Shown here: piece by piece, positions 39,829-64,000 of the stretch | Layout: every line of letters starts with the position of its first letter | Numbering within the stretch: position 1 is the stretch's first letter | From: a virus | Virus record (IMG/VR): IMGVR_UViG_3300025237_000002 | Coordinates: 46,536 to 110,535 of that record | Length of the DNA stretch: 64,000 bases | Strand: one strand, 5' to 3' | Program-made: the position numbers and the translations under genes | Notes under the pieces: generated by a model | What the model was told of the DNA's origin: nothing | Seen by the model: the letters and a program-made list of their open reading frames with translations, nothing else | Databases searched by the model: none

Positions 39829-40010
39829 ATTATATGGTTTTAATTAAACATACTGCAAATATACAACTAATAATTCAATCTCACAAATAAAATATCTTGC
39901 TTAAGGTGCGTGAATAGCGGCTTAAGCAGAGGTTAGCTGCTAGAGCGTGAAGATAAATTTGCCAGGTCCAAAATAAAGTTGTATCTTTGAGGTATAAATA
40001 AATAAACAAT

Positions 40011-40286
40011 ATGAAAACGATACCTAATAATTTTGGAGTGAAAATTACCTCAGCAGATTTTGCTAGTAGTGATTATGGTAATATTAATGATTGTTCATTA
40101 GCAAAAGCAATAAAAAGAAAATTCCCTAATCATAGTGTGAATTGTGGAGCTTCTACTGTTAATATAGGTGATATTGAATTTGATATAGTTGATGTTAATA
40201 ATCAAATATGTATTAGAACTCAATCAAATTTACCAGTTAAGGGGTTTAATGTTAGATTAAACAAATCAGAATTTCAATGGAATTAA
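40011..40286 (+). CDS. hypothetical protein
   Basis: cassette ORF. Confidence 0.7.
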   Translation: MKTIPNNFGVKITSADFASSDYGNINDCSLAKAIKRKFPNHSVNCGASTVNIGDIEFDIVDVNNQICIRTQSNLPVKGFNVRLNKSEFQWN

Positions 40287-40302
40287 TCTTAAATTAGATA
40301 AA

Positions 40303-40512
40303 ATGAAAACTAAAACCGTACAAGTACAAATCACTAAGACTTATTACAAATCTACTACAGCTGAAGTAGAAGTACCTGAACATTTAACGGATGATGAACT
40401 TCATACGTATATTGAACAGCAAGAGGCTAAGGATTCAGAATTATCTGATAGGTTGGCTGATGCATCTCTAAATGAGGATTTAGATGGAATAGAAATAGAA
40501 GTCTTATTTTAA
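40303..40512 (+). CDS. small acidic protein (DpnD/PcfM-like)
   Basis: two-strand plus helix pattern. Confidence 0.6.
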   Translation: MKTKTVQVQITKTYYKSTTAEVEVPEHLTDDELHTYIEQQEAKDSELSDRLADASLNEDLDGIEIEVLF

Positions 40513-40597
40513 ATAAAACAAAATGAAAGAACTTTTATTTGGTAGAACCAGATATTAGTTGTATATTTGCAGTATGTTTAATTAAAACCACAATCAC

Positions 40598-41140
40598 ATG
40601 AGTGCAACAGTTTACGATATTCCAGAAAAATTTAAAAAGACACTTCCTAATATCTTCGATGACAATGACTTTGAGCAGTATGAAAAGCTTGAGAAGGAAT
40701 GGATTGGACGACTATCAAATTACATTAGAGATAATTATGGTTCAGGTCAATACGTAGGACGAACAATTCGTTTTCCTGTGGCTGATGGCGAAGGTATCTA
40801 TATGGTAATGAGAACGTCACCAGTACAATTAATTCACTTACCTTTGATGGATGGTTACCAAAGTGAGTTTGCACATTTAATGACAGCTAAAGAGGTTAAG
40901 AAAAGAATAGATGCTTCCGATAGAATGACAGCTTACTTAAATTCTTGGAAATCTCAAACGGTTGGTGATGTTAATAAGGTAATTGAAGCTCACGGGATTA
41001 AATCTGATGAACCTAGAGAGGGTTATCAATTAGTTGAGTGGTTAAACGTTAAATACCTATTACCAACTTACGAATCAAAGCACGGTTATGACCACGGAAT
41101 TTATAAATATTTATGTAACTTGAAGTTACGTACAGTTTAA
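40598..41140 (+). CDS. hypothetical protein
   Basis: FPVADG motif; cassette ORF. Confidence 0.7.
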   Translation: MSATVYDIPEKFKKTLPNIFDDNDFEQYEKLEKEWIGRLSNYIRDNYGSGQYVGRTIRFPVADGEGIYMVMRTSPVQLIHLPLMDGYQSEFAHLMTAKEVKKRIDASDRMTAYLNSWKSQTVGDVNKVIEAHGIKSDEPREGYQLVEWLNVKYLLPTYESKHGYDHGIYKYLCNLKLRTV

Positions 41141-41158
41141 TTTAGATAAAACAAGATT

Positions 41159-41458
41159 ATGAAACCAATCACATATAAGTACAAGAATTTCGATATTACA
41201 ATTTATGATTTCCAAGGTGATAATCATATAAACGTCACTTGCAGTTTAGAGGGTAAGTCTTTCAATAGAGCTTATGAAGTTAAACAGGAAGTTGAATCTA
41301 TTGTTATAGACGAGGAATATGTTTACCTGAATGACGGTGACGAGAATCAATTTGTAATCAAATTTGAAGGTGAGTCTTGTTTGATTATTGACACCTTTGA
41401 TAATAGAGGTGAGCATCTTGAAGTGATTGGATGTCATGACTTTTATGATGACGTTTAA
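41159..41458 (+). CDS. hypothetical protein
   Basis: stop abuts repeat. Confidence 0.7.
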   Translation: MKPITYKYKNFDITIYDFQGDNHINVTCSLEGKSFNRAYEVKQEVESIVIDEEYVYLNDGDENQFVIKFEGESCLIIDTFDNRGEHLEVIGCHDFYDDV

Positions 41459-41512
41459 ATTAGGTAGAACCAAATAAAAGTTGTATCTTTGATGTAAGCA
41501 AAACAAATCATT
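41458..41512 (+). promoter_or_regulatory. canonical copy of cassette promoter (Bacteroidetes -33/-7 type)
   Basis: AATTAGGTAGAACCAAATAAAAGTTGTATCTTTG; 20 nt spacer. Confidence 0.85.
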
Positions 41513-41755
41513 ATGAAAAGACACGCAAAGAAAGCATTTACTGAATTAAAGAACTTAGGCTGTCCTGTAAAGGAGTGGCACGATGATTCCAGAGGTCATT
41601 TCTGGATTGATGCAGAAGAGCCTGAAGCTAACGAATGGTTAGATTACTGGAATGATGACTTCAGTGGTTCTGAGAAATTAGTTGAGATTCTGGAGAAAAA
41701 TGATTTATATTTTGAGTGGGAAAACTCAGCTATCGCAAATGTTTATGACAATTAA
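41513..41755 (+). CDS. hypothetical protein
   Basis: cassette ORF. Confidence 0.7.
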   Translation: MKRHAKKAFTELKNLGCPVKEWHDDSRGHFWIDAEEPEANEWLDYWNDDFSGSEKLVEILEKNDLYFEWENSAIANVYDN

Positions 41756-41768
41756 AACAATCACAACT

Positions 41769-41948
41769 ATGAGTAAATTAACAGCAGAAAAAACAGAATG
41801 GTCTACGGACGAATTAACTGAGGACTTTAAAGTAATTGGGTTTGGACATGGCTATTGTGCTGTGGAGCGAAAATCAGATGGACAGAAAGGTTCTTTTGAT
41901 TTTGGTGGAAGACCACGTAAGTATTTTAATTTTGTAAAAAGCAATTAG
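41769..41948 (+). CDS. hypothetical protein
   Basis: start corrected; RKSDGQKGS motif. Confidence 0.65.
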   Translation: MSKLTAEKTEWSTDELTEDFKVIGFGHGYCAVERKSDGQKGSFDFGGRPRKYFNFVKSN

Positions 41949-62083: not shown

Positions 62084-62146
62084 GTGATTGTTTTGTTTTG
62101 CTTAATACAAAGATACAACTTTATTTTGGTTCTACCTAATTTAAGT

Positions 62147-62380
62147 TTACCAATGTGGTTTTGACCAAGATTGTTCTGTTTTAGATAACCATTGTTCGGT
62201 TGTCTTTGTGAATATAAAGTTACGTGTTTTACCAATAGATTCCAATGCGTAGAAAACTCTATCATCTTCATGGTCAAATCCACAACCTACTTCGATAGCA
62301 CTTCCTATTTTAACAATTCGTCCTTGAATTGGTCTGTGGTCTTCATATGCTTGAAACCAAACTATTTCACCTATTTTCAT
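62147..62380 (-). CDS. hypothetical protein
   Basis: coupled ORF. Confidence 0.65.
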   Translation of the reverse strand: MKIGEIVWFQAYEDHRPIQGRIVKIGSAIEVGCGFDHEDDRVFYALESIGKTRNFIFTKTTEQWLSKTEQSWSKPHW

Positions 62381-62595
62381 CGTTCTAGTGGTGTTTCTCT
62401 CATGTAAATATCGTAAATCTCTTGCGCTGTTAATGTCGATGCCTTTCTATTGGAACTAATATAGTGAGATGTCAATTTACCTTGTGCTATCATTCTAAGT
62501 AAAGGATTTGCGCACATAGTTCTCCACCAAGTATCGGCTTTGTTTACGTTTACGTTATTTATTCTAATTGCGATGTTTGATTGTGTTGGATACAT
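62377..62595 (-). CDS. hypothetical protein
   Basis: start corrected. Confidence 0.65.
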   Translation of the reverse strand: MYPTQSNIAIRINNVNVNKADTWWRTMCANPLLRMIAQGKLTSHYISSNRKASTLTAQEIYDIYMRETPLER

Positions 62596-62649
62596 GATTG
62601 TTTTGTTTTGTCTAATACAAAGATACAACTTTTAATTGTAACCACCAAA

Positions 62650-62850
62650 CTATTTGGTGAGCAATTCAATTAAATGCTGTCGCTGTTTGTTAATGTTACC
62701 TAACTCAGCTAGTAATTGAGTCTTCATATTGTGACGTTTACCGTCATCAGTGAAAACCTCATCATTCCCTGAATCGTTACCGTCATAGCTGTTCAGGAAA
62801 CCTAACGTCTCCTGAAATTCTCTTACATTCTTTTCTGTGTAGTGTCCCAT
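62650..62850 (-). CDS. hypothetical protein
   Basis: stop abuts repeat. Confidence 0.65.
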   Translation of the reverse strand: MGHYTEKNVREFQETLGFLNSYDGNDSGNDEVFTDDGKRHNMKTQLLAELGNINKQRQHLIELLTK

Positions 62851-62865
62851 CTTGTTTTATCTAAT

Positions 62866-63168
62866 TTAAGATTCCAATGATACTCCCATTGGGTCAGGTG
62901 TTTCAACGGTCTTATTAAACCAACCCGTCTCCACAAACAACCCAGCAAGACCCTTGCCTTTATCAGAATCTCTATTCACTAGAGTTTCAGGTATAAGTTT
63001 AATGGTAGGGTTTGTACCCGTGTAAATTGTCTTTGGTAGGATTGCCGCTTGTATCTCAAAGATAGTAGGTAAGTTAGCCATAATAGTATCTTCTTCAACT
63101 ACCATAATCAAAGCAACTTTACCGTCACCCATTTTCTGACCTAATACTTTTAAATAATGTGTTTTCAT
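62866..63168 (-). CDS. hypothetical protein
   Basis: ORF. Confidence 0.7.
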   Translation of the reverse strand: MKTHYLKVLGQKMGDGKVALIMVVEEDTIMANLPTIFEIQAAILPKTIYTGTNPTIKLIPETLVNRDSDKGKGLAGLFVETGWFNKTVETPDPMGVSLES

Positions 63169-63326
63169 CTCTTTGAAGGTTTAAGACGTTTGGTTCTATT
63201 TCGTCTGTTATTTGAGCGTGTGTCAGCCTCAGATGGACGCTTGCGCCTCTTTCTGTTTGGATATTCCTCGAAGATTGGCTCTTCATAACAATAAGGAGTG
63301 TTATACTTGTATGATTTCTCTACCAT
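63165..63326 (-). CDS. small Arg/Lys-rich protein
   Basis: start corrected. Confidence 0.55.
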   Translation of the reverse strand: MVEKSYKYNTPYCYEEPIFEEYPNRKRRKRPSEADTRSNNRRNRTKRLKPSKR

Positions 63327-63362
63327 GATTATTTTATTTTGTCTTAAACAAAGATACAACTT

Positions 63363-63950
63363 TTATTTGGTTCTACCAAATGTATATAAAGAAGATTTAA
63401 TTGCAGTATCGTGAATATGTTCAGGATTTGGTCTCCAAGTCATTATAAACCTATGGTTAAACCCCGATGGGTAACATTTACCACAAGATGATTCACCACG
63501 TTTGATGTGAGGTGATAGTTCATTTGTTAGTTCTTGATTACCACAAGTTGAACATTCAGTTATGTATATTGGGTGAACACCTTCTTTAAACACCCCATCT
63601 GTGCTTATCTCTCCCGAACAACCTATTTTATGTGCAACATCAACCCATAAGTCACTATGGTCTGTATGACCTCTAAGCTCTATATCAATGGCGTGTGCTA
63701 TCTCATGTAACATAATGTCAATCCAAGTTGACATTGGTCTGTTAAGATTATTGATTAACCATTCAGATAACATTAAAATCTTATCACCGTTTTTTCGTGT
63801 GCATTGTCCGTTGGCTGAATAAGAATTGTTTAATTCAAATGACCAACCCCAATCCATTAAGTTGATATTGTAACCATCAACCTGATAGGTGTCTGACATC
63901 AATTTGAGCATCTCGGATTTGCAAGCTAGTGGTGTTACTTCAGTATACAT
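63363..63950 (-). CDS. SprT-like zinc metalloprotease
   Basis: G.C, HEIAH, H...W....IG, CSTC...CGKC; start corrected. Confidence 0.8.
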   Translation of the reverse strand: MYTEVTPLACKSEMLKLMSDTYQVDGYNINLMDWGWSFELNNSYSANGQCTRKNGDKILMLSEWLINNLNRPMSTWIDIMLHEIAHAIDIELRGHTDHSDLWVDVAHKIGCSGEISTDGVFKEGVHPIYITECSTCGNQELTNELSPHIKRGESSCGKCYPSGFNHRFIMTWRPNPEHIHDTAIKSSLYTFGRTK

Positions 63951-64000
63951 GATTGTTTGTTTTGTCTTAAACAAAGATACAACTTTTATTTGGTTCTACC

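Follow-up and report, generated by a model that had tools for sequence, protein, structure and literature searches.

The early promoters of phage T4, present in about 40 copies, have an extended consensus that reaches beyond the -35 and -10 elements, and the host-takeover module of phage SPO1 is a promoter-dense early region in which strong early promoters precede small genes; to our knowledge, repeat-mediated shuffling has not been shown in the SPO1 module. Here we describe an array of small genes headed by copies of a repeated promoter-leader unit, which lies in a 64,000-nucleotide stretch of viral DNA (the window; positions 46,536 to 110,535 of the IMG/VR record IMGVR_UViG_3300025237_000002), and we compare this array with such systems.

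The closest described system is the promoter-early stem-loop (PeSL) element, or mobile regulatory cassette, of T4-like phages (Arbiol et al. 2010; Comeau et al. 2014). PeSLs are strong host-type early promoters with a stem-loop, found at about 50 copies per genome in variable regions, which span the interval from the upstream stop codon to the downstream start codon and which have been implicated in indels, mini-circles and exchanges "between otherwise unrelated sequences" (PMC2839356, PMC4122927). Recombination between promoter repeats is an idea already published for these elements (PMC2839356, PMC4122927).

The array described here is a variable block of promoter-headed cassettes at positions 39856-64000, with a plus arm (39954-47593) and a minus arm (64000 down to 47666) that converge near 47600. 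Its repeat stands ahead of genes, matches the expression signals of Bacteroidota hosts, and contains junctions at which relatives of the phage differ. We consider it likely that the region consists of shuffled cassettes under portable, PeSL-like promoter-leader units in a T4-type jumbo phage of Bacteroidota, and that it is an accessory gene block, probably of the early class. The original prediction, made from the letters of this sequence, had read the array as an integron-like system.

Results

We found that the repeat far exceeds chance in number. An exact 29-mer of the repeat, allowing up to three mismatches, gave 16 matches (compared to 0 in shuffles), and a 20-mer core gave 30 (compared to 0.05 in shuffles). 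A 36-column matrix, derived from these matches and then iterated, found 73 sites on the whole 110.5-kb contig (0-0.6 in Markov shuffles), of which 54 and one truncated site lie in the window, 36 and one truncated site in 39856-64000, and 27 and one truncated site on the minus strand between 48201 and the end of the window. These totals of 55, 37 and 28 are close to the original estimates of about 60, 40 and 31. All 73 sites are co-oriented with the next gene, and in most the ATG lies 15-29 nt past the -7 box. Self-comparison showed that the repeat is a unit of 58-77 bp running from the -33 box to the ATG, with a conserved leader up to the ATG itself, and that homology ends at the coding sequences. 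The 37 promoters of the array serve about 60 genes.

The unit also supplies stop codons. Of the 36 full units, 15 have the stop codon of the preceding gene within the 36-mer or overlapping it. The genes ending at 53104, 55229, 56782 and 59210 use the TAG of TTAGG as their stop, and a TAA or TAG in the first four bases of the unit ends the genes at 41458, 54740, 58301, 61420 and 62650. All of these positions had been proposed as stops inside or abutting the repeat, and each was verified base by base.

Read 5' to 3', the unit consists of TTWGG (-36 to -32), GTAGAACC, AAATAAAAG (-24 to -17), TTG, the -7 box TATCTTTG, a leader and the ATG. In nearly all units the -7 box is TATCTTTG or TATATTTG, with TTTGG or TTAGG 20 nt upstream; TATCTTTG is 100% kept and fits TAHHTTTG. 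The leader (for example, TATTGAACAAAACAAACAATCA) is A-rich, 20-28 nt long and without a Shine-Dalgarno sequence, and its consensus has A at -3, -6, -12 and -13. The Bacteroidota promoter consensus comprises a -33 TTTG and a -7 TAnnTTTG, and in Flavobacterium johnsoniae the -7 box is TAHHTTTG, AT-rich motifs lie near -18 and -28, transcription starts 4-5 nt past the -7 box to give leaders of tens of nucleotides, and A at -3, -6, -12 and -13 enhances translation (PMC6847099). The units fit this pattern of a -7 TAnnTTTG without G at its two middle positions and a -33 TTTG 19-21 bp upstream, and their A-tract coincides with the AT-rich -18 element of Flavobacterium promoters. Thus, as far as sequence signals can tell, the units are host primary-sigma-type promoters.

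The window is the final 64 kb of its contig, which is 31% complete per CheckV. Over its entire length, the contig is collinear with the 38-122 kb segment, read in reverse orientation, of a complete genome of 360,451 bp with terminal repeats (IMGVR_UViG_3300023196_003249, here G001); 44 of 246 genes are in common, and the backbone proteins are 50-80% identical. G001 encodes a tail sheath, a T4-type Gp23 capsid protein (E 7e-62) and a T4-type portal (E 8.5e-79); these structural genes were read from G001, and the structural region is absent from the window's own contig. One contig protein carries a T9SS sorting domain, and the contig also encodes an NAD salvage set and 20 tRNA genes, none of which is in the window. 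Judged by this gene content, the phage is an uncultured T4-superfamily jumbo myovirus infecting Bacteroidota, of marine origin to judge from its TARA relatives. A metagenome scan with the 29-mer found a closer relative, the TARA contig TARA_R110000851_G_scaffold196444_3 (here T), which has the same unit family and 15 of the 37 minus-arm genes in common with the window (60-91% protein identity), as well as shorter contigs from other samples (L141, L142, L146 and L147).

Comparison with these relatives bore out the view that the array consists of small, self-expressed genes and is very variable. It has just 11 of about 60 genes in common with G001, which keep their order except for one, and the G001 promoters have the same design but are much less uniform (matrix scores of 14-30 compared to >40 in the window). 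Loci with GP88 homologues in IMG/VR (L061, L063, L064 and L072) have 20-40 such promoters per 20 kb, each locus with its own uniform leader; in L063, L064 and L072, homologues of window cargo are reordered, on different sides of GP88, and stand behind the resident style of unit.

We examined six junctions at which the window and its relatives differ (scores given for units are those of the 36-column matrix, and hairpin values are in kcal/mol). The first concerns a methyltransferase cassette at 56790-58266 (minus strand), which comprises a 74-aa gene (58019-58243) and a 411-aa DNA methyltransferase gene (56782-58017), has two flanking units and is absent from T. The right border unit (56754-56789, minus, score 42.6), within which the methyltransferase stop codon (56782-56784) falls, heads 56562-56732 and 56203-56562; the left border unit is 58267-58302 (minus, score 42.1). 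T has just one unit here, with the 3' end of the 58301 homologue on one side of it and the 56562 homologue on the other. At the second junction, unit 10180 of T is chimeric: its terminator, -33 box and spacer match window unit 52037-52072 (minus, score 27.5, terminator-overlapping, hairpin -20.0), which heads the ParB-N gene 51267-52007 and 50232-51209, and its -7 box, leader and gene match window unit 53937-53972 (minus, score 46.4), which heads 53370-53909 and 53104-53343. At the third, unit 7820 of T has the promoter and leader of window unit 59182-59217 (minus, score 41.0), which in the window heads 58898-59164 and 58301-58876; the gene behind the T unit is a homologue of 45309-45560, which sits on the window's other arm.

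At the fourth junction, units 56051-56086 (minus, score 27.9, terminator-overlapping, hairpin -23.8; heads 55594-56034) and 53076-53111 (minus, score 45.2; heads 52800-53048) are kept in T, and the sequence downstream is unrelated from the ATG or, in the case of 53076, from right past the -7 box. At the fifth, the cassette of unit 48201-48236 (minus, leader class 2, score 44.2, with a terminator upstream), which heads the 168-aa gene at 47666-48172, is inverted in T and independently in L147 (two TARA samples). At the sixth, the ORFs 45823-46038 and 46117-46326, between which unit 46052-46087 lies (plus, score 40.3), correspond to a single ORF of 134 aa in T and L147; in the window, the unit provides the stop for the first half and the leader and ATG for the second. 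All six junctions are seamless, stay in register and leave the length and spacing of the unit unchanged, and the crossover sites vary within the unit (in the spacer, just past the -7 box and at the ATG). Thus, the relatives show gain, loss, replacement, relocation and inversion with junctions in the repeat, rather than collinear genomes with breakpoints unrelated to it.

Units also appear to have been copied over one another. Of 14 positional pairs, 10 have a window unit that matches another window unit better than its positional partner in T. For example, units 62108 and 55201, which are 7 kb apart, are identical over 50 nt, including several non-consensus bases, and the T positional partner is only 82% identical. 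Moreover, the window and T units differ in type at the same position ahead of the 60575 and 59210 orthologues.

These observations suggest the following mechanism. The unit would be a portable expression element of 60-75 bp, with a host-type promoter and an A-rich leader to the ATG, which the host primary sigma factor would read, such that transcription of the small genes or small RNA would begin there; its AT-rich 5' part would often carry the stop codon of the preceding gene. General homologous recombination of the phage may use the units to cross over in register, because the units are the sole sequences common to otherwise unrelated cassettes, and recombination at them would add, delete, replace, relocate and invert cassettes and copy units over one another. 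We infer homologous recombination as the cause of the shuffling, and early timing and use of the host RNA polymerase from the sequence match and by analogy with T4. General recombination would fit the gene content of G001, which includes an SbcC-like gene and an ORF with a weak, RecA/UvsX-like match that falls below the Pfam cut-off.

Several results weigh against this reading. Of the informative junctions in the comparison of the window with T, synteny breaks at 11 of the 15 that have a promoter and at 4 of the 5 that have none, and synteny between the window and G001 breaks at about 10 of 34 promoter junctions compared to 5 of 27 without a promoter; thus, there is no measurable enrichment of breakpoints at promoters. 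Furthermore, since the intergenic space of the array is almost all unit, any viable breakpoint is likely to land in one. Mean unit identity is 0.65 within the window and 0.66 between the window and T, so that homogenisation is not genome-specific at this distance. Most of the relatives are metagenome assemblies, in which misassembly at a repeat could look like a deletion from promoter to promoter or like a chimera, and the methyltransferase indel and the chimeric unit were seen in T only, whereas the inversion, the fused gene and two other segments were confirmed by independent contigs (L147, L141, L146). Finally, a strong hairpin is found in only about 8 of 37 units, and both early timing and host polymerase use are argued from a sequence match and the T4 analogy.

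We considered that the units might simply be strong early promoters with optimal leaders, alike because of selection for expression, with turnover by illegitimate recombination or recombination at other sites and only intergenic breakpoints surviving. The lack of breakpoint enrichment, the four breakpoints at junctions without a unit, and the equal unit identity within and between genomes all speak for this explanation, as does the spacer. The spacer had been thought to be conserved far beyond what a promoter needs, and its conservation is indeed real: identity at positions -24 to -13 is 80-100% among the 26 best units, compared to 31-76% in the other 47. However, the promoter-proximal half and the -7 box recur many times in other Bacteroidota jumbo phage contigs, and this best-kept half matches the -18 element of host promoters; thus, much of the apparent excess can be put down to promoter function. 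The distal half (AACC, positions 12-15) is only 50-76% kept even among the 26 best units. Set against this explanation are the seamless, in-register nature of all six junctions, the clean chimera of two window units in T, the two distant units that are identical even at non-consensus bases, and the differences in unit type ahead of orthologous genes. On balance, we think it unlikely that expression selection alone explains the array, and we favour recombination at the units.

We also examined non-coding products of the array. A promoter-driven, multi-copy family of small RNAs (about 60-80 nt) has an invariant core, GAGTAGACTCC, and frequently a T-run at its end. Copies lie in the window at 38306-38386, 49694-49774 and 52550-52630 (all minus strand), and elsewhere in T, in G001 (47243-47323), in L061 (2), in L063 (4) and in L064 (6), those in L063 and L064 being antisense to the gene array. 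The family had no Rfam match, and RNAalifold yielded a 3-bp stem only and no convincing common fold; an Rfam search of 36000-64000 at E up to 1 returned terminator-like noise only. Two of the copies belong to a duplicated module of promoter, small RNA and promoter (49627-49835 and 52476-52694, minus strand, 75% identical over 226 bp). At 38212-38422, facing promoters at 38249 (plus) and 38387 (minus) would transcribe both strands of the third window copy.

Another short non-coding unit, 53973-54063 (minus), comes with a strong terminator and with a weak promoter of its own (about 54064-54100). The part of it that stays unpaired, its core, shows complementarity to leaders of the main class, with predicted duplexes of -12 to -16 kcal/mol; 11 of 36 leaders gave z < -2 when shuffled cores were the reference, and no leader of class 2 was among them. 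In T, this core recurs two or three times together with the terminator and the next promoter. The leader might be imagined as more than a signal for translation, namely as a shared post-transcriptional off-switch handle for the cassette set, acted upon by this candidate small RNA or by a nuclease with the role that RegB of T4 has on early mRNAs, with units also actively copied to new sites, even into genes, where they would give a stop and a new start; we regard this as distinctly improbable.

It is similarly doubtful, and slightly more so, that the -33 box and spacer (TTWGGTAGAACC) are the site of a phage factor (a MotA-like activator, an alternative sigma factor or a shut-off repressor) that makes the units a phage-controlled temporal class, an idea that would be compatible with recombination at the units. 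GG at -33/-32 has the highest information in the motif, where Flavobacterium host promoters show little conservation (PMC6847099), and TTWGG is kept across related phages and absent from two unrelated Bacteroidota phage contigs (G002 and G003) that have their own dense arrays of near-identical promoters. On the other hand, the -33 consensus published for Bacteroidota is TTTG at just this distance (PMC6847099), spacer positions 12-15 are poorly kept as noted above, and no candidate factor was identified. The consensus does form a near-palindrome of 7+3+7 bases over the -33 box and spacer, but we rejected this as an operator or attC-like site, as it shows no covariation and is equalled by 340 of 1000 column shuffles.

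An integron-like mechanism, in which a site-specific recombinase encoded elsewhere would use the repeat as an attC-like site for capture and excision, is hardly credible: repeat-bounded cassettes of unrelated small genes and the fact that just 31% of the genome is in hand would allow it, but the tyrosine-recombinase family Phage_integrase (PF00589) had no match in the 110-kb contig or in G001 (all 14 control genomes match; 69% of this genome lies outside the scan), resolvase (serine recombinase) had none in the contig or the complete 360-kb G001, no stable folding was predicted for the best units (-4 to -8 kcal/mol), palindromic matches do not exceed column composition, each cassette has its own promoter, and crossovers fall at varied places in the unit. 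The original remark that the window holds no recombinase thus extends to the whole contig.

The cargo genes are unrelated to one another. Each unit heads one to five unrelated small genes (mostly one to three) or a small RNA, in line with the original description of the cargo, and several units have no downstream ORF. Self-comparison revealed no cargo paralogues within the array that would indicate duplication. Recognisable cargo consists of a DNA methyltransferase with a DUF7688 N-terminus, ParB-N, SprT-like and GP88-family proteins; none of 20 further small cargo proteins tested matched a Pfam family. An anti-defence role for some of the cargo is plausible as a candidate function, and only the methyltransferase, ParB-N and SprT-like proteins hint at an anti-host or anti-defence role.

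The remaining units are distributed as follows. A second leader class, ATGTTTAATTAAAACCA, is found in five units: 46052 (plus) and 48201 (minus), described above, and 39856-39891 (minus, score 32.8; heads 39454-39828), 40534-40569 (plus, score 39.1; heads 40598-41140 and 41159-41458) and 45759-45794 (plus, score 42.9; heads 45823-46038), the last of which has a 100-bp repeat in common with the 46052 unit. These units cluster at the outer and inner ends of both arms, and related forms occur in T, L061 and G001. Also on the plus arm are 39954-39989 (score 33.2; heads 40011-40286 and 40303-40512), the exact-consensus unit 41456-41491 (score 47.7; heads 41513-41755 and genes to 43702), 43704-43739 (score 28.3; heads the GP88-family gene 43763-44653), 44637-44672 (score 36.2), in which a 69-nt non-coding start precedes 44742-45125, and 45257-45292 (score 44.5; heads 45309-45560 and 45562-45780), which has a terminator hairpin (-24.7) just 5' of it.

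On the minus arm, from its inner end outward, the weak unit 48524-48559 (score 14.8) has no convincing downstream ORF, 49197-49232 (score 31.9) heads 48595-49176, 49653-49688 (score 40.9) heads 49229-49630, and 49775-49810 (score 27.3), with its -33 box in a terminator hairpin (-17.8), heads the small RNA 49694-49774; 50113-50148 (score 39.4) heads 49832-50089. Unit 52506-52541 (score 43.5) heads 52090-52479, a cassette that is missing from G001, where small RNA, promoter and ParB gene follow one another directly, compared to small RNA, promoter, 129-aa gene, promoter and ParB gene in the window. The terminator-overlapping unit 52631-52666 (score 31.3, hairpin -19.5) heads the small RNA 52550-52630. 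Farther out are 54563-54598 (score 40.1; heads 54348-54506 and 54114-54320), 54708-54743 (score 41.2; heads 54576-54686), 55201-55236 (score 43.3; heads 54949-55173 and 54740-54946), which is 98-100% identical to the 62108 unit, and 55555-55590 (score 45.7; heads 55229-55531).

Beyond the methyltransferase cassette lie 59611-59646 (score 43.0; heads 59210-59593), the terminator-overlapping 60109-60144 (score 29.1, hairpin -20.4; heads 59776-60093), the exact-consensus unit 60436-60471 (score 47.7; heads 60180-60413) and 60923-60958 (score 34.3; heads 60575-60916), which has a terminator upstream and a consensus unit at the same position in T (58% identity). These are followed by 61387-61422 (score 41.3), in which a 96-nt non-coding start precedes 61030-61290, and by 62108-62143 (score 43.3; heads 61685-62083 and 61420-61674), 62618-62653 (score 42.5; heads 62377-62595 and 62147-62380) and 63349-63384 (score 46.4; heads 63165-63326, 62866-63168 and 62650-62850). 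The last unit, 63972-64000, is cut by the contig end and heads the SprT-like gene 63363-63950. A 4-kb contig from another sample (L145) matches the last 127 bases of the window (63874-64000) at 100% and extends the array about 1.9 kb past the window end, with four further units and then a divergent promoter region.

Hairpins of -17.8 kcal/mol or stronger thus occur in about 8 of 37 units; in five of these they overlap the -33 box, which lies in the descending arm, and in three they are just upstream. Units of the uniform class have no strong hairpin (mostly -4 to -8 kcal/mol).

We made several further observations on the units and their surroundings. Just 5' of units, at 49689-49705, 49811-49830, 50149-50170, 52542-52560, 45740-45758 and 46033-46051, there is TTAATTTATCTAAAA or a close variant. 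At 58877-58897, a leader-like stretch, AAACAAAACAATCATG, lies ahead of 58301-58876 without a promoter; this looks like a unit remnant, since T holds a full unit at the same place. The window's contig ends inside a unit, as do several short metagenome contigs, as expected if assemblies break or branch at the repeat; no circular signature (terminal overlap) was found in the short contigs that end in units. Window positions 16000-40000 are also very variable (2 genes in common with G001), with promoters that are more widely spaced and less uniform, and outside the window, contig positions 5334-6260 hold a 464-bp tandem duplication (98.7% identity) that doubles a 79-aa ORF.

Searches of databases beyond the relatives described above gave little. 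Megablast of 48000-64000 against GenBank phages gave no match; in IMG/VR the exact 29-mer did not occur and the 20-mer gave single matches only, and IMG/VR searches with the 325-aa protein, a ParB alignment and a 179-aa alignment gave nothing new besides G001. As for the unrelated arrays, the one in G003 (1-20000, L040) packs about 25 promoter-leader units, nearly identical to one another, into 20 kb and has the upstream box AAAATTTTTATA instead of TTWGG, and G002 (L038/L039), a large contig, has an array of its own.

Discussion

The original prediction proposed that recombination between repeats adds, excises and reorders cassettes in an integron-like system. The first part stands to the extent that cassettes turn over with junctions in the repeat; the second does not, as there is no recombinase in the contig or in G001, no attC-like fold or palindrome, and a promoter for each cassette. 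Shuffling by homologous recombination at portable promoter-leader units, which we think likely, would mean that PeSL-type modular shuffling, described in T4-like phages of Proteobacteria, also operates in giant T4-type phages that infect marine Bacteroidota, where another type of promoter and leaders lacking a Shine-Dalgarno sequence serve the same logic. Arrays of this design, each with a consensus of its own, occur in several further phage contigs of Bacteroidota; the pattern is therefore general and could guide annotation. The units would also be a ready-made, very uniform source of strong promoter plus leader for genetics in Flavobacteriia. Moreover, the approximately 60 small genes of unknown function, together with the methyltransferase, ParB-N and SprT-like genes, form a fast-turnover accessory set that would be the likeliest place for host-takeover or counter-defence functions.

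The array resembles several known systems to different degrees. Like an integron array (IntI, attI, attC and Pc), it is repeat-bounded, variable and made up of unrelated small genes; unlike an integron, it has no integrase, no attC-like folded site, a promoter per cassette and crossovers that are spread over the unit. Thus, the integron-like mechanism fails because every defining integron feature tested turned out to be absent. With the SPO1 host-takeover module it has in common dense, strong early promoters ahead of small genes, although the phage is unrelated and the promoter type is different. As with the T4 early promoters, there are many copies of what would be a very strong host-polymerase promoter, conserved past the core hexamers and placed before small early genes; in this case, the sigma type is different and the leader to the ATG is conserved as well. 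The units share with Bacteroidota primary-sigma promoters the -7 TAHHTTTG, the -33 TTTG, the AT-rich -18 element and the leader A at -3, -6, -12 and -13, but host promoters are individually diverse, whereas here one optimal version is repeated near-verbatim about 26 times (PMC6847099).

The closest likeness is to PeSLs. In both cases, dozens of near-identical host-type promoters lie in the intergenic spaces of variable regions, mostly before genes without known relatives; the unit holds the stop codon of the preceding gene in its AT-rich 5' portion, and at its 3' end the translation signal and the start codon of the next gene; where related phages differ by indels, replacements or exchanges, the joins are at the units; the consensus is lineage-specific; and the phage belongs to the T4 superfamily (here through the collinear G001). 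The differences are that these units have a Bacteroidota -33/-7 promoter rather than one of the sigma-70 type and an A-rich leader without a Shine-Dalgarno sequence, and that they are 60-75 bp long, compared to about 100 bp. Furthermore, the stem-loop that gives PeSLs their name is strong in about 8 of 37 units and in none of the most uniform class, and the host phylum and genome size (about 350 kb) are new for such cassettes. Because most units are without a stem-loop, and because promoter type and leader also differ, we describe the array as a variant of the PeSL system rather than as a strict member of it.

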